This document shows, piece by piece, positions 2,328 through 20,124 of a stretch of DNA of 64,000 nucleotides; position 1 is the stretch's first letter, and each line of letters begins with the position of its first letter. The notes under the pieces are model-generated. The model made no database searches. It had not been told where the DNA came from and was given only the letters and a program-made list of their open reading frames with translations. The DNA is taken from assembly GCF_963921235.1 (NCBI RefSeq), contig NC_086097.1:89716001-89780000 (forward strand). Reading direction: 5' to 3'. The DNA comes from Mobula hypostoma. Its lineage: Eukaryota. A program made the position numbers and the translations under genes.

Positions 2328-3499
2328 GTTTGATGAGGCAAGTTCAAGATTGTGTACTTTTAACACACCAGAGGGAAGATGTAGCTTTCTTCGATTACCA
2401 AATGGGACCCTGTCTGCACCAGGAGTCTACATTAAAACCATCCACATGATCTTTGAGGGCATACCTAGTGTCAAGACAATGATGATGACATTATTGTTTT
2501 GGGGTCCCTCAGGAAAGAACATGATGCATGACTGAGACAGGTGCTTGAAGTGACATGGAATGTCAATTTGAAATTAAATAAAGAGAAATGTAAGTTTGGT
2601 GTTAATTTACTGACTTACATAGGAGAGGGAGTGAAGCCTGACCCAAGAATGATGTCAACCATTGAAAACGTGGAGAGGCCCCAACACAAATAGGGGTGAA
2701 ATATTTCCCGGGGATGGTCTCTTACCCAGCTAAGTTCATCCCTCGATTGTCTTCTGTGTCAGCACACAGTGAAATGAGTGGATTTGGTCTCATGAGCAAG
2801 AAATCTATTTCCAGAGGCTGAAAGAGTCCTAACCGAACAGCCCATGTTGACATTTTATGATCCAGAAAGGTGCACTAGGATCTCGGCTAATATGTCCTGA
2901 TGTGGTCTTGGAGCAGTACTCCCACAGCAGCATGATGACACGTGGCAAACTGTGGCCTGTGCACTAAGGGCTTTAACAAGTGCGGAAGCCAACTATGCAC
3001 AGATAGAGAGAGAGCTTCTAGCCAGCACAAATACATGCAAAAGGTTCCATCAGTACATCTACGGACAAGCTTTTGAAGTGAGACAGACTGCAGAGCACAG
3101 GTCTCAATTATGTCCAAGCCACTGAATGACTCTCCCATGACGATACAGCGCATGTTGATAAGGCTGCAGAAATATGATCTACACACCAAGAAAGTATATG
3201 TTTGCTGCTAGTGGATTGTCTCAAGCTGTCAACAGGAAAGAAAACAGTGACCAAGGAATTAGTGTTGATCTACAGACCTACGTTGACATGATTGTCACAT
3301 CCATTCCGGTATCTCCCGATGGAACAGAAAAGATTAGGACAGCAGCAGGGACCGATGAAACAATGTAAGTACTCTAAGTGACAATACAAAAAGGATGGCC
3401 AGCAACTAACAAATGATTGTCCAATGTGCTTTCAGGATTATTGGGCATGTAGAGCTGAACTGTCAATAGTGGAAGATATGGTCTTGAAAGGAAAAAGAT

Positions 3500-8814: not shown

Positions 8815-10300
8815 GTAACTATCATCCCTGTACCAAAGAACTCCACAACTTCGGAACTTAACAACTACTGCCTGGCGGCACAGACACTAATCAATATGAA
8901 GTGCTTTTAATGGCTGGTAATGGTAAACCTCAAAAACTCCATTCCTCTCACGCTGGACAGTCATCCACATGCTTACCAACAGAACCGCTCTACAACAGGT
9001 AGCATAGCATCTGTCTTGCTCCTGACCCTGATACACCCAGGAAACAAGGACACTTATGTCAGAATGCTGTTTCTGGATCTCAGTTCAGCCTTCAACACTA
9101 TTGTCCCTCAGGCCTTGGTGAACAAACTCCTACTCCTCAGTCTAAATACATCACTCTGCAACTGGACTTCCTAACCAACAGACCTCAGATAGCCAGGATA
9201 CGCAACCACTCCTCTCTCCCCCTCATCCTCAACACAGGTTCTCCGCTCCCCCCCCCCCAGAGCTGTGTGCTGAGCCCATTGCGATACACTCTGATCACAC
9301 ACGACTGCATGGCCGTGCAATCACATTGTCAAGTCCGCTGATGACACAACAGCGACGGGGCTCGTCATCGACAACGATGAGGCGGCCTACAGAGAGGAGG
9401 TGGAAGAGCTCGAGGCCTGGTGCCAAGCAAGCAACCTCTTCCTCAATGTCAACATGACAAAGGAGATGGTTATCAACTTCAGGACATCTCACACCACTCA
9501 CACCCCTCTTTACGTCAGTGGCACAGCAGTGGAAACTGTGAGCAGTCTCAGACTCCTGGGAGTGCGCATCTCGCACAACCTCTCATGCTCCCAGAACACA
9601 CCCTACACAATCAAGAGAGCTGAGCAACACCTCTACTTTCTGAGGAGACTGAAGAGAGCCGGACGATGCACATTAATGCTCATGTTATTCCACGGACGCG
9701 CTGTAGAGAGCATCCTAACACGCTGCCTCACTGCGTGTAATGGTTATGCATTGCAGCACCAGGGATTGCTCTTCAGTGGGTAGTTAAAGCTACCCAGCAC
9801 ATCACGGCCACCAGCCTACCCGCCATCAAGGGCATGTATACAGAAAGGTGCTGGGAAAAGGCCAGCAACATCATGAAGGATCACACCACCCTGCACATGT
9901 TCTGTTTGTCCCACTCCCGTCAGGGAGGAGGCTCCATAGCATCCGTGCCAGGACCACCAGATTTAAAAGCAGTTATTTTCCCCAAGCAGTAGGGCTGATC
10001 GACACCTCCACCCACTAAACTACCTCACCACACCACATTCCACCACTACGTTATCATCTCCTGTCAGAGTCACCTTATTTATAGATACTCCTTTGCCCAG
10101 CGTCACTTTATGGACAGACAATCAATCTATGTATATCAGCTATCTGATGTATTTATATTTATTGTGATTTTTTTTATTATTGCGTTCTTTATCTTATTGT
10201 GTTTTTATTGTTGCATCAGATCTGGAGTAACAAATAGTTTGTTCTCCTTTACACTTGTGTACTGGAAATGACACTGATTAATTCTGAATCTTGAATCTTG
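8815..10300 (+). mobile_element. Rex1/Babar LINE, 5'-truncated (RT to 3' tail)
   Basis: YVRMLFLDLSSAFNTIVPQALVNKL, WCQASNLFLNVNMTKEMVINFR, QHLYFLRRLK; tail (GAATCTT)n ~10285-10300. Confidence 0.9.
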
Positions 10301-12549
10301 ACTCTGTGATGTTGGACAAGAACAACTTTCTTTGATTTCTTTGTTAGTTGAATGTCTTAAAGGCAGTTATTACTCAGGCCCAATCTTAAAGAGCCACAGC
10401 CGGAAAACGTGGTGCCTTAGAGGATGGGTCATTCCCAAAACCTCCTTGTTTTAATTCTAGTCATGAGTTATGATGAGTGAATCAACTGTAGTCCGGGGGT
10501 CTGCTTCCAACATTTACCCTCATTCTTCTTCAAGCAGATTGCTGTCAGATAATTTTCAAAGCAAGTGCTGTTGGCTCACACTAGACACACCAGCAGGTTT
10601 TGGGTACTTCAGGGAGAAATTCCAATGAGGCACAAAAATATTATGGCATTTTCACAAACCCCCCGTACATGTGAAACAATAATATTTCCTGAACCAGCCC
10701 TTAGAAATCAGCTCTGGCTACTAGAAAGCTCAGAGCTGTGGGTGAGTTCCCAGAGCCCCAGTTTGCAAATGTTTACCTGGAGTGAATCCAAGCTTTAATT
10801 TGCTCCTTCATTCCGACAACATTGAGTCTGGATTTGCCAAGACGTATCTTTGAAAGGGGGAGGGGGAGGTGTTCGACAAGTGAAAGATGAATGGTTTATG
10901 ATGTTCACACCTACATCTACTTACATCATTGACAGCAGCACCTCCAGAGTCAAACCATTTAAAGGAGTCCTGCCTTTCAGCAGAAGGGGTGCTGAGAAAT
11001 GAAAAATGAAAGATTTAAACAGATTAGACCACACAACATTGGAGCAACGTAAAAGGCCGGAAGATGGATAGAAGCACGCATAGAACACGGACACAAGGGA
11101 GGTGGTGTTGGCATTAATAATTTATACAGGAAAAGTAATGGGTCAAAGTTCAGTGTGAGTGGGCCAGGATTCTGGTCCACTGGTTTTTCTCAGTGCAAGT
11201 GAACGAGAAGGATTGGTCCTTTGGAATTCTTGGCTGTAGGAGTGAATAGAAAGGGGTTTGATCCTTCCGTATGTGGTACACAGGAGTGAAATGAAGGGGT
11301 TTACTCCACTGGGAATATATATAATTAGAATGATTGGAAAGGGGTTGGATCACTTGGGATTCTATATAATTATAATAGATGGTAAGAGGCAGATCTAGTG
11401 GGGTTCTAGGCACTTAAAGTGAATGGGAAATGGATTGTTCCAAAGGAGTTTCTACACTCTTTGTGCTGTGGTGATACAAAGCTCTCGCCATTGGTCAATA
11501 TTCATTGAGTGAACTGCAGCACTGCTCAAAACAGTTTGCCTGTAGCTGGCAGAATTCTTTACCACAAAGAGGCTTAGCCACTTGCAAGCAAGGCCCCAGA
11601 GTAGGGCCTCCTCTATCAGGAGTGCAGATTGTTAGGGTGAGGGGCGTGACGACAAAGAAATGACTGGTCATTAGCCATGTCTCCAGGACAACTGCGGAGC
11701 CTTTGTCCAGCCACTAATAAGTTATTTATGAAGGGGTCTTGTGTATAGACAGCCGGTCAGGGTGTTATAAAACTGACACATTGCCCTGGGAACAGGCTGA
11801 AAGTGAAGGGGTTGATCCTGGCAAAAGAAAATAACAACTATTCCCCACAGGCTTCAATTACCAGCTATTACACAGAGAGAAGCAGTGTGTATCTGTGTGA
11901 TTAACATTACTAGGGGAATTTTCATAAACATTTAGGTGTCTTTCCAGATCATTTTCTTCTGTTCAGACCTGTTTTTGAAGTTTTGCAGCTATATTTTAAA
12001 CACAAGTTTTGAATCTTAAGTAACAAGAATCCAGTACTTCATATCTATTAAAGCTTAATGCACAAAAAAAGTCACATTTTCCTTTTGGAGATTTTTCCTC
12101 ATTTTCCTAGAGCCAATTCAAACAAAATAAATTACAGTGGTGATGTTATTGCATGGTTAATATACAGCTGATGAATCCCTCCCACTTCTGTCTTGATCTA
12201 GGAGTTTTAAATGGCTTAGTGTTAAAACATTTGCTGATATCAATTGTCACATGAGTAGCAACACTGATGAGGGATTGCAGCACTGTTTAATGTGTTCCCT
12301 TACAGGCAAGACATTAACTTACACCACTCATGTAGACAAGATCAGCCCTACTGTACTATTGGCATAGGGTGTATCAACAGTATATCCCTCTGTCAATTTC
12401 TAAATGCGGATAATCTGGCCTTTCCTGAGATTGTAAAACCTAGAGACAGCATGGACTCAATGGGCCAAGAGGCCTCCATCTCCACCCCGACAATGCTATG
12501 ATTTATCGTTTATGGAAAATTGCAATCTGCACTTTGTTTGAACGTCATT

Positions 12550-12860
12550 TATGGGATGTGAGTGTGGATAGCGAGGACAGCATTTATATGCTCGTCACTA
12601 CTTGCCGTTGGCAGGGCAATTTTTTTAATGTTCAGAGCTTCACAGGATAAGACAGCATTTAATTGCCCTTCTACAGCTGCCCTTGAGAAGGTGGTAGTGA
12701 AGCTGCCTTCCTGATCCGCTGCACACCCTACGCCCACAATGCCGTGCAAAAGAGTACCAGGATTCTGGATGTCATATGGCTTAGTGGTGACGTTCCTGTG
12801 CTTTCCATTCCCTTGTCTTTCAACCTTTTAGAGGTCATAGGCTTGGATGATGAGCTACCC
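12550..12860 (-). mobile_element. Old LINE 3' end
   Basis: TGCCCTTGAGAAGGTGGTAGTGAAGCTGCCTTCCTGA is the reverse of a similar segment at ~63370-63440. Confidence 0.5.
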
Positions 12861-12949
12861 TTATGAACCAATATGGGATTCCTAGGATTTGGACACAGTA
12901 AAGGAACATCGAGTTATCCACAACCATTATATCCCTGAAACAGCATAGA

Positions 12950-13215
12950 TAACCTCACTCATCTCAAACCTAGTAAAAAATATATATATGATTATTTATT
13001 GATCTATTTATTTAATTGATCAGCTTATTTATTTATTCATTCATTATTTGCACAATTTGTCTGCACATTAGTTGTTTGTCAATCTTTACTTATGTATAGT
13101 TTTTCATATATTCTATTGTATTTCTTTATATTCCTGTGAAAACCTGCAAGACAATGAATCTGAAGATGGCGTATGGTGACATAATGTAATTTGATAATAA
13201 ATGTACTTTGAATTG
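12950..13215 (+). repeat. AT-rich LINE 3' UTR (Rex-associated tail)
   Basis: TTTGCACAATTTGTC...GATAATAAATGTACTTTGAA shared with 26875-27165 and with the tail of the Rex copy at 57000-57660. Confidence 0.65.
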
Positions 13216-13684
13216 GCTTTCACTTCATTTCCAGTTCAGTGTAGTGTGCACTGGAGTGCAATGTCCGTGAGCCATTGCCCTAGTTCTTCTTGCTGGTAGA
13301 CAGTATGGGTTTGGGAATTCCTGCCAAAACAGCATCAGTGAGTTCTATTGTGTGTCAGCGGGGGAGGTTATGAAGATTTAGGCTGGGGAATGTGGTAACA
13401 GTCCAGCAGGTTGCTTTGTCCTGGCTGGGACCAAGCTTCCCAAGTGTTGTTGTAGGTGGATTCATCAGGGTGAGTGGAGAGTGCGGTAAAAGCCTACAAA
13501 CAGCAGTGCCAGAAATCACTGGGATCATGTTGTTTGAATGATAAATGGTTGGTTGGCAACTATCTGTCTCAAAGGACAATGAGCGATGATCATCATCATC
13601 ACAAGCCTGGGTAGAAGGTATGGAGATCCTGAGATGCCCAGTTGTCAAGACCCCCTTCTTGGCCTCTCCATTGTAGTCCAAAGG

Positions 13685-14130
13685 AGAGCTTATGAAGCAA
13701 TACGTTTGGCACCAGCTTGGCTGTAGGAGCTGCCGGAAGGATGTTCAATGACGTTCGGCCGCCTTAGGGGCTCCACTGTGGATTTGCTGTCTGGGTTTAC
13801 TCCCGCAGCCTTTGTCTCTCCCAAGGCTGCCCACAAGGCAGTGGGGCTATTTACCCATAGATGGGGATCTGGTTCGTGAGCACCAGGGCCTGTCCACACA
13901 CTGGTGGCCCTGCATGCTATGTGTGCCGGGCCCAGACCTCCTATCCATCCTTTGTAGTTCAGCCTGGGTCCGGTAAGAGTTTAGTTTCTATGTGTCGCCA
14001 GCGAGGAGGCACTACATGAGGCTTGCTGTTGGAGAGTCTATGTACGGACAGGGAGCGACTTGCACATTCAGCTCTCCTTTTTGCAAGAATCCTAGTCAGT
14101 AGCGGAAGCTGAAAGCAAGAGTGACAAGCA
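13685..14130 (-). mobile_element. 5' UTR relic of an RTE-type non-LTR retroelement
   Basis: GC-rich non-coding segment that begins with an HDV-like ribozyme fold; RTE assignment is inference. Confidence 0.55.
13953..14129 (-). ncRNA. HDV-like self-cleaving ribozyme (decayed copy)
   Basis: Minus strand: P1 GCTTGTC (14129-14123) / GACACAT (13996-13990); P2 TGTAGT (14016-14011) / ACTACA (13958-13953), perfect; P3 GCC/GGC with L3 TCCTCGCT; J4/2 GGCTGA with C at 13962. Confidence 0.75.
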
Positions 14131-14199
14131 CTACCCACTACACTACAACACTAGACGTGTCACAACAACCATTTTGAAATCATAAGTACTGACCAGAAT

Positions 14200-14545
14200 A
14201 TAAGCTCATAGAATCATCAAGTCAAACAGCGGGGAAAAAGACCCTTCAGCCCATCAAATTCCATTGACACTCATTTATTCCAATCCTACATTCATCCCAT
14301 TTTTTATTCTTTCTATATTTCCATTAACTCCCCTATTTTTTCCCACTTACTCAGTCCTACACTGGACAGCAATTGATAGAGATAATTACTGTGTTGAGCT
14401 ACACACTCTGTGCAGGTGGGAGGAAACCAGAGCACCCAGAGGAAATAAGAATGAAGATGAAAACTCCACAGAGACGGCACCAGAAGTCAGGGTTGAACCC
14501 AGAACTTTGGTACTGTGAGGTAGCGGGTCTGCCAGTTGCATTGCT
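14200..14545 (-). mobile_element. HE1/V-type SINE
   Basis: Reverse complement of the V core (GGGAGGAAACCAGAGCACCCAGAGGAAA...AAACTCCACAGAGAC) with a tRNA-like head near 14490-14545. Confidence 0.7.
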
Positions 14546-14939
14546 AGTCCTTCACGGTCGTTATATTATCATGTTCCACAAGCCTCTGACTAAACTCTGC
14601 TCAACATTATCTTTAGTTTGAGTCCCTATATCTAGCTCTATTTTGAAATCCTGCTGAAGAACCTTTACCTGAGCTATTACATAATATTTCACCTGACAGA
14701 CAATATTCCCTCAGTACAGCTGCAGAGTATCAGCCCAGAGGCGTTGGAGGGTATCCATTAAGGAGGGTGAAGGCAGTCCGTTAACAGCAGGAGAAGCATG
14801 TTTATGATGTGGTTGAATTTGAGGCTATATATGATGGCCAAGGGATTGTGAGAAGTTATTTACCTGTCAATATCTGTCAATAGGCAGCTGGTAGCATAAG
14901 GAGTTAGTGGTTACCCAGGAGATCTTTTTGCATTCGGTA

Positions 14940-15240
14940 TGAGCGATGATTGATAAGTTTGTGTCCTAAGGTAGGAGTCAATTTTAGAAAATCTAGCACA
15001 TTTATTTTTCAACATAGTCCCCTCCTACATTTACACACTTAGTCCAGTGGTCGTGGAGCACATGGATCCCTTCTTTGTAGAAGTCAGTGCCTTGGACTTC
15101 CAGAAAGTGGTCCACAGCAGGGGTGGTTGATAAATTCGTGGCCTAAGATAGAAGGAGATGGGTTATACAGCTCTTGTTACATGCATGTGCAGTTCAACTC
15201 TTTGAGTGATTATGCAGAAAGTTTGAAGTTAATAACTCAT
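14940..15240. mobile_element. Truncated copy of the mariner-derived MITE at 43621-44234
   Basis: TGATTGATAAGTTTGTG.CCTAAGG..GGAGTCAATTTTAGAAAA.CTAGCAC terminal sequence and internal repeat match that element. Confidence 0.8.
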
Positions 15241-16494
15241 TGAAGTAAATATCTCACATCACACCAGCGATTATTTTGTGCCCTCTTTTTCCACATTATT
15301 GAATTTATTCAGGTCACATCAAGAAGCAAAAGTTGAATTAGTTGGATGCCTTAACCAAAACAGCAGGATCTCCAAAACTTTTTTTTTCCTTGATTTTCTC
15401 AATTATTTTCCCACAGTGTTCAATTTTGTGGTGGAGTGATGATCTCCAATCAGAATGTTCAAGATTCTACTGGTAGCCCATTCAGAACTTTCAGACCAAA
15501 TTCAAGAAATACCTGGAAATGTGTAGTTTGCAAGGCAGTGACAAAATAGAGGAAAAATAGACTTAGTTGGATGGTTCCTTCAGGGAGCCAGGAAATGCAA
15601 GCTGGGAAGAGTGACTAAATCACATGGTGTAGGACCCTATGCCTCACTTGCATCTGCCTCAGACAACTGATTACCTTACCAATTATAGATTTACAGAACT
15701 AGAGAGAGAAATAGACCATAAGACCATAAGACAAAGGAGCAGAAGTAGGCCATTCAGCCCATTGAGTCTGCTCTGAAATAGCACAGAAACAGGTTCTTCA
15801 GCTGACCATAAAACATCCATTTTCTATGTCGGGCTTACAATAACCTTTCTTATTCTCCCATATTTTCATCAAATCTCCCGGACACACTCTCGCTGACCAT
15901 CTAAAGTTTTCTTTCTAATTCACTCTTCTGCACTACCCTCCAGTTTACACCTCACTGCGGTGTCTTCTGACCTGTCCCGTGCTCTCTGTGCCTCTAGCCT
16001 TGCTTTAGAGCTGCCTTAAAAATTTCTCAGGCATCCTTATATTCAACAATGTGATATAAGGGGAAACACTGTTGTAAGGTTGGTTTGTATCAATATTGCA
16101 ATAAAAAGCCTAATCTCTGCATTATTTCCTGCTGTCATTATCTGCATTATGAACTCCTGTATCTAGGTTTAGAATAAAAACTTGTCAAGCTGTGAATCGA
16201 GCCTCCTACCAATGTGGTTTATGTCTCTAACTCCCATGCCCCCTTCAACTCTGCTGCTGCTTTTCAACTATAAGAATCTTGCTGTTTAATAATTGCCGTT
16301 AATATTAGAGAAATGTATTATACCTGAACAAATGCAGAATTATATGATGCCACAACATGAGCCAAATTATGTCCGTGTATCTAGGTCCTATCATCATATG
16401 AAAATTATATTTGACAGATTTTATTTGGAAAGTAAATAATGTGTTATAGTAACAACAGAAGTTATTAATTCTTCTGCAGTTATGACCTTGAGTA

Positions 16495-16690
16495 TGTGAT
16501 GTTTTGTAACTTCAAAATATTAAACCAATTCAAACGAAGACACAGGAGTCCAAAATGTGAGTCTAACTTCATGTTTTACTTTAAGTGAGGCACGCACGTA
16601 TCACGTGGTAGCGTGATGATGCATGCAATTAACGTATTTATACATTTAACCTGTAATGGATTAATTAAAAGAACAAGAATGCTTAATCAC

Positions 16691-16748
<58 letters not shown>

Positions 16749-16803
16749 TATATATATATACACCACATTACTCAATTATTATTGAAATATTAAATTCACA
16801 ACA
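16495..16803 (-). mobile_element. Solo LTR (309 bp) containing a (CA)n/(TA)n microsatellite
   Basis: TGT...ACA termini; 5-bp TSD GAGTA at 16490-16494 and 16804-16808; strand inferred from an AGTAAA-type signal on the minus strand. Confidence 0.8.
16691..16762. repeat. (TA)n(CA)n(TA)n microsatellite
   Basis: Seen directly in the sequence. Confidence 0.97.
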
Positions 16804-17001
16804 GAGTACATCTCTGATTTTAACCTGCTGTCTTTTGTTGGTTGTCGTCAGCTGAGTGGACCTTAATTCTAACATTTCCCACCAAAATACATGTGGCTTC
16901 TAACACTTTTGCTTCTCTTTAAGATGCTCCTTTGAACTTGCCTCTGCCCTCATCTCTCCTTATCTGACTTGGTGCCAGATTTGCAAGAACTATATCCACA
17001 C

Positions 17002-17120
17002 AGGGTCTCGGCCTGAAACATCAACTGTACCTCTTCCTAGAGATGCTGCCTGGCCTGCTGCATTCACCAGCAACTTTGATGTGTGTTGCTTGAATTTCCA
17101 GCATCTGCAGAATTCCTGTC
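17002..17120 (+). mobile_element. Penelope-type terminal fragment
   Basis: Near-identical to the arms of the 4600-4833 and 48201-48380 elements. Confidence 0.8.
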
Positions 17121-18169
17121 GTATCCACACCTGGGGATGTTTTAACACATCTAAAGTACACTGGAAACACAGCAAGGTATAAACAAACTTCCATCTCTGC
17201 ATTTCATCCACCAAGAAGTATACCTATTAACTTTTACTGTTTCATCATGAATAGCAACATAAAGTCAATGTGTCATATAAAAGTCAAAGTCTTTTTTGAA
17301 AGTGAAGTCCTTTCTCAAATAAATGTAAAAATGTAATTAGGAAAAAAGTGAGTGTGTTTCTATGATGCTCTTTCTAATATTTATCTCTCAGCTAAAATCC
17401 ATGTATAGACAATGTGATCATTTCTCTCATTGCTGTCTGCTTGAGAATGCCACCCTTTTTAACCAATGCTGATACTTCATTGGTTCATTAAAAGGTTCAT
17501 TATCAATTAAATTTCTTCCTTTCTTTCAATGCTTCCTTGCCTCTTTTGAAAACTGGAGCCTGCATATGATTCTTTGAGATTAGCTGGAAATTCTGGGGCA
17601 ATTTAAAGGGGATGAAGACTTTATACATCTATATCATTTCCTCATAATAATGTGTGACAGCAGAGCATGCTCTCAATCTATTTTAGAGAGCTTCAGGCCA
17701 ATTAGTCAAGGAGACAAGGAAAGAGAATGCAGAAAATAATATCCTTTTCATTCCAATTTTAGCCATTTAGTCCCTCAAAAAGTACTCAGGTCAATTTAGT
17801 TTAGCAATTATGCTAGTAAAGATTAATAATAAGTCTAATTACCATTATTATTTTGCAGCTAGATAAAATGATAGATATTCAAAGTATTCACAGAGAATGC
17901 TATTGATCTGGATATGCAAAAGAAATTACCCTTTGTAATGTTAAAGGAAGACGGGGCTACATTTCAGCTGCAAGATAATATATAGATCATTATATATTGT
18001 TTATTCTATCCATACACCACTCCGGAGTCTGCATGTGCTTTCTATCAAGGTGTTCCATCGTAAAATTTTGTATCCAAAAGCAATTCTGAACAGAAATTTG
18101 AACTGTAATTTCAATCTCATGACAATGGAGGCACTACAAGACTATTGCTGGTCAAAGGGCTTTTTTTTA

Positions 18170-18480
18170 TACATTCAGGAGATCTGGGCTCTGCTGCCAA
18201 GGCCAACATCTATTCACCATCTCTAAAGGTTCAGGGAAATGAGGGCAGTTAAGAGTTAACTGTATGCCTATGGGCCTGGAGTTATGTAGAACCAGAGCAG
18301 GCAATGACAGCAGTTTAAATTCACTGAAGGGAGGGCATGAAGCAGTTGGAGTTTTGGGGCAAACTAACTGCTCATGATGCTGGCATCTATTTTTTCTGAT
18401 TCAAAATTTACATAATTAAATGAATTTACCCGCCCCAGCTGCTGTGGTGAGATTTGAATGTTTGCTTTAACTACTGTGCT
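18170..18480 (-). mobile_element. Old core-domain SINE relic (family not assigned)
   Basis: GGGCAGTTAAGAGTTAAC...CTGGAGTTATGTAG...CAGCTGCTGTGGTGAGATTTGAA resembles an ancient tRNA-SINE in reverse. Confidence 0.45.
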
Positions 18481-20124
18481 TTCGCATCCCACAATAAGCA
18501 CACCAAATTTGGATTGGAATCTTCCATAATTAATGTGGGAAAACCTTCTAAAAGGAATTGCTTCGAATAGGAATTGAGCAGTGAGTCCCTTCACAGTTAT
18601 AACTCAACTTCAATAATCCTCTCCAAAGTTATCAGAAGATGCTATATTAATGTGACAAATTCATCTGAGTTTCCAAAGCAACTTTGGAAATCCAAATTTA
18701 TGAAAAGAGAACTTGCAACCGGATATACAGTGCAAGTGGCAACATATTATATAAAAGCAGATGGTGTGTTGTTGGTCTTGGTACAGTAACAAAGATCTAC
18801 TATTCAATTAGGTAAAAAGTAAAATAAACAATTTACTGCACGGCATCACAAAAGGTTCAGACATCTTTTCAAAGGATTACATCTGCCACAGATGTTTTCA
18901 ATAAATGCAAGAGAGAAACACTGTGACTAATCCAGGGATAAAGTAAAACCATTATAAAACTAAAGTTGTTAATTAGAAACATATTTTTTCCCTGTCTCTC
19001 TTGTCATTTCTTCAGTGTATCTCTCCAGTCTTATCCCCGGAGATCAAAACATTTTTGGCCATTATAGCACCTTCAGGAAACTAGACTGGACTCTCCAGAC
19101 CCCAGTTTGGGAGCAGATGCCCTCATGGTGAAGACATCTGGCATTTTATGTCTTTTCATTTCTCCACTGTCCTGGTTAACTTTGTTCTTTTAACCCTTTG
19201 AGGGCCTAGCAGAGTATTTGCACAAGCTCAAGGAAGGGGGTTTACATTAGAGTGGCGTTTTACACAACCCAGCAGTGCCCCAGAGCACAGGGTAGAACAA
19301 GTATCCTTAGATTTTAATTAATGATATTTTTAACCAACATAAACGACTCATGCTTGGCCCTACAGTCAATAGAGCATTTAGTGAGTGCAGCGACTTCTAA
19401 AATAATGGCAAGAAAACTTGCTGTGTATTTCCAGCTGAGGTGATTTTTCTTTCAGGTTCAGATTTATTGAAACATACAGAGGAATGCATCATTTGTGTTA
19501 ACGACCAACACAGCCATGTGCTGGGGGCAGCCTGCAAGGGTCGCCACACATTCTGGCTCCAAAATAGCACGCCTAGATGATGCTTCATTTTCCATCCAAA
19601 CAGCAGCCCTTTCTTGATACTGTACTGGAGTATCAATGGAAATTCACCGTTATCTGTCCAGGCGAGGACTTGAATGCATGGTTCTCTAACACAGAGAAGA
19701 GGATATTACACACCAAAATCCCCATGAACTTCGCTGAATCCCAGTCCTGGCCTTATTTGGGATTTATTCCCACACAGCTAGCTGAATGACACTGTAACGG
19801 TTGAAGATGCTGTTCTGACATGGCAGTAACTCAACATCATGGACCTCATGCCCATAATTACCCCTGTAGACAGAACATCTTATGTTCATAATTGCCCCTG
19901 CAGACAGAGCAATGGAAGCCAAGGGTAATTGCCATATTGATTGATGAGGCAAAGTCTGGGGATGATTGTCTTGCCTATTTCCTTTTCTGCAGCTTGGTCA
20001 GTTCCACCTAGAAGTGGTCTGATCCAGCATTATTCAAGTTTGAAGGACTTGTATGGTTGGAAGCCACTGGCAGCTTGAATAATGGTTAGAGAAGAGTAGA
20101 AATAAATGGGTCATTTTTACCTGG

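Follow-up and report, generated by a model that had tools for sequence, protein, structure and literature searches.

Does a 15-nt match to the genomic hepatitis delta virus (HDV) ribozyme in the genome of Mobula hypostoma mark a genuine ribozyme, and if so, to what did that ribozyme belong? The match lies on the minus strand of a 64,000-nt stretch of contig NC_086097.1 (the window, whose numbering is used throughout). We conclude that it very probably belongs to the decayed head of a non-coding retroposon of about 630 bp, built from both ends of a 4-kb RTE-type LINE. Judging from sequence and modelled structure, an HDV-like layout at this head likely cut the element's RNA from longer host transcripts at its first base (~14181), and the window copy is predicted to be dead.

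The class itself is already known. HDV-like ribozymes head non-LTR retrotransposons, including RTE, R2, R4 and L1Tc (PMC3774820, PMC5786205, PMC6765202), and RTEs give rise to short bipartite derivatives. What this family adds is a vertebrate case with about 3,000 insertions from which to read the 5' end, along with a pair of linked subfamilies whose P1 differs by a single base. The pair is a ready test of how much distortion P1 tolerates, and of cleavage versus mere folding in RTE mobility. RTE untranslated regions are also being engineered for gene insertion (PMC13708176).

An HDV-like core in the window

The core is identical to that of HDV. A direct sequence check found GCCTCCTCGCTGGCG at 14010-13996 on the minus strand. 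It comprises P3 (GCC/GGC) and the canonical 8-nt L3, intact at 13997..14010, plus the first base of P1', and 15 of 15 nt agree with the genomic ribozyme of an HDV record (L075) from our viral-contig pattern scan that scores 106 bits against RF00094. The P3/L3 identity of the original prediction was thus borne out; L3 holds the conserved U, CC and G above a 3-bp P3. For helix names, and in writing J4/2 as CNRA, we adopt HDV usage.

The predicted 6-bp P2 lies in the nested order claimed for it. TGTAGT (14016-14011) pairs with ACTACA (13958-13953) at 6 of 6 positions in the window copy, and window and family alike have the P2 of at least 5 bp expected of an HDV-like ribozyme. The full strands (14011..14021 and 13949..13958) add a 4-bp extension, 14021-14018 past a bulged A with 13952-13949, whose pairs are kept in 72-80 of 87 copies; its first pair is broken in the window copy. 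J4/2 (13959..13963) reads G-C-T-G-A, and its catalytic-position C at 13962 is intact, as predicted. Among 43 copies not chosen on their core, 33 keep this C and 4 are gapped there.

The remaining helices are weaker in the window copy than in the family. The 3' strand of P1 (P1', 13990..13996) reads GACACAT, GACACAC being commonest in the family. The P1.1 nucleotides (13988..13989) read AG, again as predicted, versus GG in the family majority; this leaves one of two pairs, within the one or two C-G pairs of an HDV-like P1.1. The P4 hairpin (13964..13984) keeps 5 of 7 family pairs, and folded in isolation it reaches 0.0 kcal/mol (no folding) versus -4.9 for the majority sequence. A further predicted helix, P1.2, would close J1/2 with arms at 14163..14169 and 14025..14031. 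The commonest pair occurs in 75-80 of 87 copies at each of its seven positions, and the helix forms in predicted folds. The family thus has the nested order P1-P1.2-P2-P3-P1'-P1.1-P4-J4/2-P2', and in L075, too, P1, P2, P3, P1', P1.1, P4, J4/2 and P2' follow one another in this order.

Chance does not account for this core. We scanned with a descriptor that combined P2 of at least 6 bp, P3, L3 and CNRA and left out P1. It matched this site only in the 64-kb window and gave 3 matches in 200 shuffled windows (0.015 per window). Of 63 public loci selected for the 14-nt core plus GG, just two also have CNRA and a complete P2 (5 bp or more), namely HDV and a giant-virus contig (L096). These three counts together argue against a chance match. 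A pattern scan of metagenome contigs returned five loci, all chance, and 56 of the 58 loci from the viral-contig scan lacked a completed P2.

Covariance models make no call here. The original prediction had proposed an HDV model search as a check; across 9000-19000 of the window, Rfam returned nothing relevant at the locus and no HDV_ribozyme match at E ≤ 10. RF00094 (gathering threshold 50 bits) likewise gave no score in four other family loci (L036, L037, L038 and L044). Among the window's open reading frames, one of 13 has a Pfam match, and it is unrelated: a 162-aa frame at 9295-9783 on the plus strand matches PF09004 (ALKBH8_N, E 7e-7), and is presumably the end of another LINE.

Copies define a retroposon with a sharp 5' end

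The window core belongs to a large repeat family. Searching the animal's own 3.5-Gb genome gave 1762 candidates, of which we scored 40: this locus and 39 copies at 83-86% identity. An exact core pattern matched 143 times, and its control 0 times. Cross-sampling two patterns puts the copy number at about 2,700-3,100, a rough figure from small overlap counts (4/88 and 2/30).

Alignment of 30 copies delimits the element. The common sequence runs from ~14181 to ~13547 and ends in (CCAA)n, so the window copy occupies 13547..14181 on the minus strand: about 575 nt of LINE 5' UTR, a short LINE 3' end and the tail. Upstream flanks are almost always private, with only 4 pairs among 172 distinct copies sharing one. 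Target-site duplications (TSDs) of 8-15 bp flank 40 of 136 typed copies (32 of 99 in subfamily B, 8 of 37 in subfamily A), and in 21 of those 32 B copies the TSD ends within 2 nt of the first base, G1 (14181). The same 5' boundary recurs in four public sequencing runs of other organisms, one of which is possibly the source sample. In the window, 14178..14187 is a possible 5' TSD, matching at 8 of 10 positions a possible 3' TSD at 13537..13546 directly behind the (CCAA)n tail; this likeness is weak on its own. If the TSD at 14178..14187 is real, the window copy was inserted with about 4 nt of the 5' end missing.

The family divides into two subfamilies, which we typed solely by markers at the 3' end. 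Subfamily A, with a median divergence of 12%, begins GTGTGTC-AAA, has the longer 5' part and ends in a (CAT)n tail. Subfamily B, to which the window copy belongs, has a (CCAA)n tail and 9% divergence, begins GGTGTC-AAAA, and is commoner in our sample. A few intermediates exist, in both directions. Just before the LINE-derived 3' end, B carries a palindromic (TGA)n/(TCA)n stretch (13594-13612, minus strand) instead of the A-type junction, and this stretch could form a hairpin.

Two B copies about 410 kb apart on one contig (L007 and L020, G000:C96) are 95% identical over 698 nt. They share 62 nt of upstream flank and a changed conserved L3 G; their 3' flanks differ, and the longer unit has no clean TSD. 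This could reflect 5' transduction from a non-cutting source, or DNA duplication. Several groups of neighbouring copies (L014/L015, L036-L038, L041/L042 and L051/L052), their flanks being different, have private substitutions in common, which suggests gene conversion between nearby copies. Two further pairs (L198/L344 and L269/L323) lie at equivalent positions behind similar flanks, probably through independent insertions into the same host repeat.

The copies also relocate P1. The original prediction had set G1 at 14129, with GCTTGTC (14123..14129, minus strand) as the 5' strand of P1, a J1/2 of about 105 nt, and a pairing that a family consensus would restore. In the window copy this strand does pair at 5 of 7 positions with P1', opening with a G-U pair. 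However, within the 184 nt upstream nine 7-mers pair equally well, GCTTGTC included, and its duplex energy is +0.8 kcal/mol in the window copy and only -0.9 to -2.8 against the family P1'. Nor does the consensus mend it. Of the 63 B copies 36 carry the same sequence, as do 13 of the 24 A copies, and its mismatches, being the family majority, are therefore not decay. Copies begin not there but some 52 nt further upstream, near 14181 where the TSDs end, which makes J1/2 about 159 nt long. A P1 starting at 14129 is thus highly improbable, and we read 14123..14129 as internal J1/2 sequence with chance-level pairing.

At the element's true 5' end the picture is different. The expectations that copies start at G1 and that their consensus restores P1 fail in the 14129 register and hold at ~14181, where subfamily B would need a bulged A (below). 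The consensus also restores the GG after P1' and the P4 helix; the forecast P1 of GCGTGTC/GACACGT does not appear, the family P1' being GACACAC or GACACAT. The claim that the window copy has decayed survives: P1.1 is halved and P4 is weak, the mismatches at 14129 being no part of that decay.

A partner LINE of RTE type

The retroposon shares both its ends with an autonomous LINE. Two A-type 5' parts continue into an endonuclease-like frame, and a search with one of them recovered ~4-kb LINE remnants that carry the retroposon's head and its 3' motif, the latter followed by a (CAT)n tail. Window positions 14174-13600 align to positions 12-574 of one such remnant (L296) at 78.9%. In the window copy the LINE-derived 3' end and (CCAA)n tail occupy 13547..13590 on the minus strand, and its 3' motif also ends the 4-kb remnants, there followed by (CAT)n. 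The element is thus bipartite, both ends being common to one LINE with the ORF deleted, and it has the TSDs of 8-15 bp and the microsatellite tails, (CCAA)n and (CAT)n, of such derivatives.

The LINE's protein has RTE anatomy. At E ≤ 1e-20, a 237-aa reverse transcriptase (RT) piece finds 777 homologues. The top one, at 71% identity, is a 1047-aa protein with Exo_endo_phos and RVT_1 domains (P0001), and the LINE remnants align over its residues 1-1047 in frameshifted pieces. Proteins of about 1045 aa are among these homologues, P0001-P0120 lying on contigs of ~4 kb. The RT is 25% identical to that of this genome's L1, and the LINE's motifs may be BovB-like. RTE elements have one ORF, which encodes both APE endonuclease and RT (PMC8501958, PMC13708176), their tails are microsatellites, (CAA)n for example (PMC6007223), and bipartite ORF-less derivatives are described in PMC5786205 as reported only for RTE, Ingi, Vingi and R2. 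On this sequence anatomy we assign the partner LINE to the RTE type, a label drawn from layout and not from a tree with named references; no labelled RTE, Ingi or Vingi references were found among the RT homologues. The prediction that an HDV-like fold heads an RTE-type retroelement is therefore supported, by the copy boundaries and by the LINE partner.

Other searches touched the LINE less directly. A 96-aa endonuclease fragment found no homologue, and short LINE remnants gave no Pfam match at E ≤ 0.01, where the longer RT piece did match. The genome's top RVT_1 matches were rejected as candidates for the partner: they are L1 elements (6 of 30 translated), and 0 of 30 matched this element. 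They form a young L1-type family (L154-L183) with intact 1264-aa ORFs, unrelated to this element.

A mobility cycle can be sketched from these parts. A source copy would be transcribed by read-through from host sequence; RTEs are described as lacking promoters of their own (PMC6765202). The HDV-like fold would cut the RNA 5' of G1 with C13962 as catalytic base, as RTE ribozymes are reported to do at the element's 5' junction (PMC3774820). The LINE's APE-RT protein would then bind the 3' end of the element RNA, and target-primed reverse transcription at a nick would leave the TSDs.

A predicted P1 at the first base of the element

P1 is predicted to start at the element's first base. In HDV-like ribozymes, P1 begins at the cleavage site and spans 6-7 bp (PMC4908430, PMC3774820). 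The family P1 5' strand lies at 14176..14181 on the minus strand, the predicted cleavage site being 5' of G1 at 14181, and reads GGTGTC in subfamily B, GTGTGTC in subfamily A and GATTTC in the window copy. In both subfamily majorities, the best upstream partners of P1' are these first bases.

Subfamily A has a full P1. A 7-bp helix starts at the first base in the A majority and in two of seven distinct LINE heads, which read exactly GTGTGTC; two more LINE heads start with G in that register. From these heads, the 7-bp P1 is likely ancestral. Folded without constraints, the A majority sequence pairs as P1 from base 1 onward and also forms P3, P4 and P1.2; its P1 energy is -9.1 kcal/mol. Among 23 A copies with three A's and T or C before GTGTC, 19 start with G, in a set many of whose members were picked by a 5' pattern that fixes the later bases. 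In a set chosen by 3' marker only, the head was found at the expected distance in 11 of 30 loci, and 7 of these 11 start with G in the 7-bp register.

Subfamily B is one base short. Its GGUGUC can form a 6-bp P1 with GACACAC only by bulging one A, at -4.3 kcal/mol, and a 5-bp P1 with G1 unpaired is stronger at -6.2 kcal/mol. In the minimum free energy fold of the B majority, P1 is not formed. The first base is G in 29 of 51 scorable copies (T in 11, A in 9, C in 2); the other 48 of 99 were left out as shortened, decayed, without the A-run or with three A's. We also considered a B master beginning GTGGTGTC, with a bulged G on the 5' strand, and rejected it: G stands at -2 in 7 of 23 T-G copies, no majority.

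How was the B 5' end made? On one account, a ribozyme that was active in the LINE and in A is vestigial in B, whose RNA would start from an internal promoter located at this base or beside it. In that case the G at the start would be untemplated or derived from the cap, from which G can be added at RNA 5' ends, and the fold would survive only as a trace of B's recent derivation or as a shield for the RNA end. The short P1 strand, the lower share of a first G than in A (29 of 51 versus 19 of 23) and the greater stability of the 5-bp helix speak for this account, as do two precedents: L1Tc holds promoter and ribozyme within the same 77 nt (PMC3383444), and such a fold may protect the template by structure, not necessarily by activity (PMC11331408). 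We regard it as a serious possibility, though short of probable.

Several observations pull the other way. The 5' ends of B copies keep to the position that would let G1 pair with the final base of P1', and T at -1 precedes the first G alike in both subfamilies (23 of 29 copies for B and 12 of 19 for A). This T may, by analogy with R2 junctions, which are described with untemplated or microhomology-derived bases (PMC3774820), have either of those origins. A 4-nt P1 is described for the jewel wasp R2 ribozyme in the same source. The B pair with the changed L3 G shares its upstream flank as a non-cutting source would pass on, a single case that may be DNA duplication.

The other account is that the B head still cleaves. 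Whether it does so via a bulged A, or its fold was kept only for RNA stability or at a promoter-defined end, we judge about evenly balanced. P1 mismatches are reported to lower or abolish cleavage (PMC3774820). The stronger version, that B amplified with its one-base-short P1, G1 pairing across the bulged A, and was still cut precisely at G1, is possible but on the unlikely side. If true, B would be a natural HDV-like variant outside the rule of an uninterrupted 6-7 bp P1. With its 7-bp ancestor, a sister family bearing an L3 hairpin and a third RTE family with variable captured heads (both below), it would form a natural series within one genome that would show that the ribozyme fixes an RTE's 5' end.

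Decay of inserted copies

Inserted copies decay neutrally. In 43 copies not chosen on the core, the core has diverged by 8.8% and the rest by 9.1% (p = 0.85), and the full core is kept in only 4 of 63 B copies and 0 of 24 A copies. Within the family we found no covariation, the score being equalled or exceeded in 440 of 500 shuffles; neutral copies would behave in this way, though the result lends no support either. Relatives of the RTE protein were not found in viral contigs, so that these supplied no distant homologues for covariation. Of two single copies that we folded, neither did better than shuffles (z +1.65 and +0.81), nor does the interior of J1/2 gain significant stability over shuffled sequence (z -0.4 to -1.3).

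The window copy is predicted to be an inactive, ordinary fossil. It keeps P2 (6 of 6), P3, L3 and the catalytic-position C, with GATTTC for the P1 strand, 1 of 2 pairs in P1.1 and 5 of 7 in P4. Either the P1 strand is broken, or its first 4 nt may be target-site DNA; P1 in the 14181 register comes to +1.5 kcal/mol and could not form in either case, and the prediction of inactivity follows from this. The surviving core could alternatively mean that the host has co-opted this copy as a working ribozyme, like CPEB3. P2, P3, L3 and the C fit such a role, but the lost P1 5' strand, halved P1.1 and weakened P4 do not. The copy lies 9.8% from the subfamily B majority, at the family median of 9.1%, in a family whose core decays like the rest; co-option is hardly credible.

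Likeness to HDV and to other ribozymes

The match to HDV ends at the core. The two share the 15 nt of P3, L3 and the first base of P1', the GG after a 7-nt P1', and the C of J4/2. Outside the 15 nt, the window element and L075 do not align; the sequences of P1, P2 and P4 are unrelated, and J1/2 is about 159 nt here versus 3 in HDV. Could the identity nonetheless reflect a recent ancestor common to the deltavirus ribozyme and this vertebrate RTE head? A perfect 15-nt match invites the idea, and PMC8256844 treats the convergence of HDV-like folds as unsettled. The same source, however, describes R2 cores in which 21 of 27 nt are as in HDV; 13 of the 14 core nt recur on a giant-virus contig in an unrelated tRNA setting; and the sister RTE family described below shares P3 and has a different L3. 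With no similarity beyond the core, recent common descent is very improbable. Because nothing outside the 15 nt aligns and because R2 and giant-virus cores come so close, no link to HDV is needed, and the match is best read, from these sequence comparisons, as a constrained core. Only six nucleotides are described as invariant in the HDV-like class (PMC8256844).

On a giant-virus MAG contig, L096:373-436 (minus strand) is a complete, compact HDV-like fold in a tRNA array, between tRNA-Asn (449-524) and tRNA-Arg (300-372). It has a 7-bp P1, an 8-bp P2, a P3/L3 nearly as in HDV, GG, and GCTAA. It is theta-like in the sense of PMC10879173.

The closest parallels are ribozymes at the 5' ends of non-LTR elements. 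Common to them and this family are a fold that starts at the first base, with conserved sequence downstream and unique flank upstream, the helix order and the catalytic-position C. Unlike them, this family resides in a 3.5-Gb vertebrate genome, and the subfamily that is commoner in our sample has a P1 strand one base short. The long J1/2 recalls drz-Agam-2-1 (PMC4908430), where a helix near both ends also closes it with short linkers. P2 too extends beyond 6-7 bp in both, to 10 bp with one bulge here and 12 bp there. The likeness is one of architecture; the J1/2 of drz-Agam-2-1 holds a domain, and the interior here is not significantly stabler than shuffles.

As a retroposon, the element resembles the bipartite ORF-less derivatives of RTE, Ingi, Vingi and R2 LINEs (PMC5786205): a 5' UTR joined to a 3' end, the LINE 5' end kept, a tail and TSDs. 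Five motifs of this family found no match in the supplement of that paper. The comparison covered that supplement, and the element may already carry a name in Repbase or Dfam. Our literature search, which did not extend to the key surveys, Repbase or Dfam, found no relevant case in cartilaginous fish and no bulged P1.

Related RTE families in the same genome

A sister RTE family has its own HDV-like head. Its RT is 61-62% identical to that of the partner LINE, and the head is present in the 5' UTR of 11 of 15 aligned copies (L360, L364, L370, L372, L381, L384, L395-L397, L399 and L400), starting at its own G1. There, P1 is GGTTCC/GGAACT (6 bp), P2 is CTCCTG/CAGGAG, P3 is the same, and CTGA is found in most of the 11 heads. 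The two families thus both have an HDV-like head at the first base, a similar start of J1/2, P3 and CTGA. They differ in L3 (27 nt and a hairpin in the sister, 8 nt here), in what follows P1' (a single G in the sister, GG here), in the helix that closes J1/2, and in P4, which the sister almost lacks; P1 of the sister is 6 bp long. In a two-family comparison by eye, P1, P1.2 and P2 pair with different sequence in the sister.

A third RTE-like family (L387-L394) is young, with 41% RT identity and some intact ORFs. A looser descriptor run on RTE upstream regions gave no match in this family, but it missed even the sister-family head, so this blank carries no weight. Upstream of the ORF, copies carry variable GC-rich heads before a shared UTR, possibly through 5' capture of host RNA. 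In two of these copies, translation of one stretch gives a protein-like frame that may resemble methylmalonyl-CoA epimerase.
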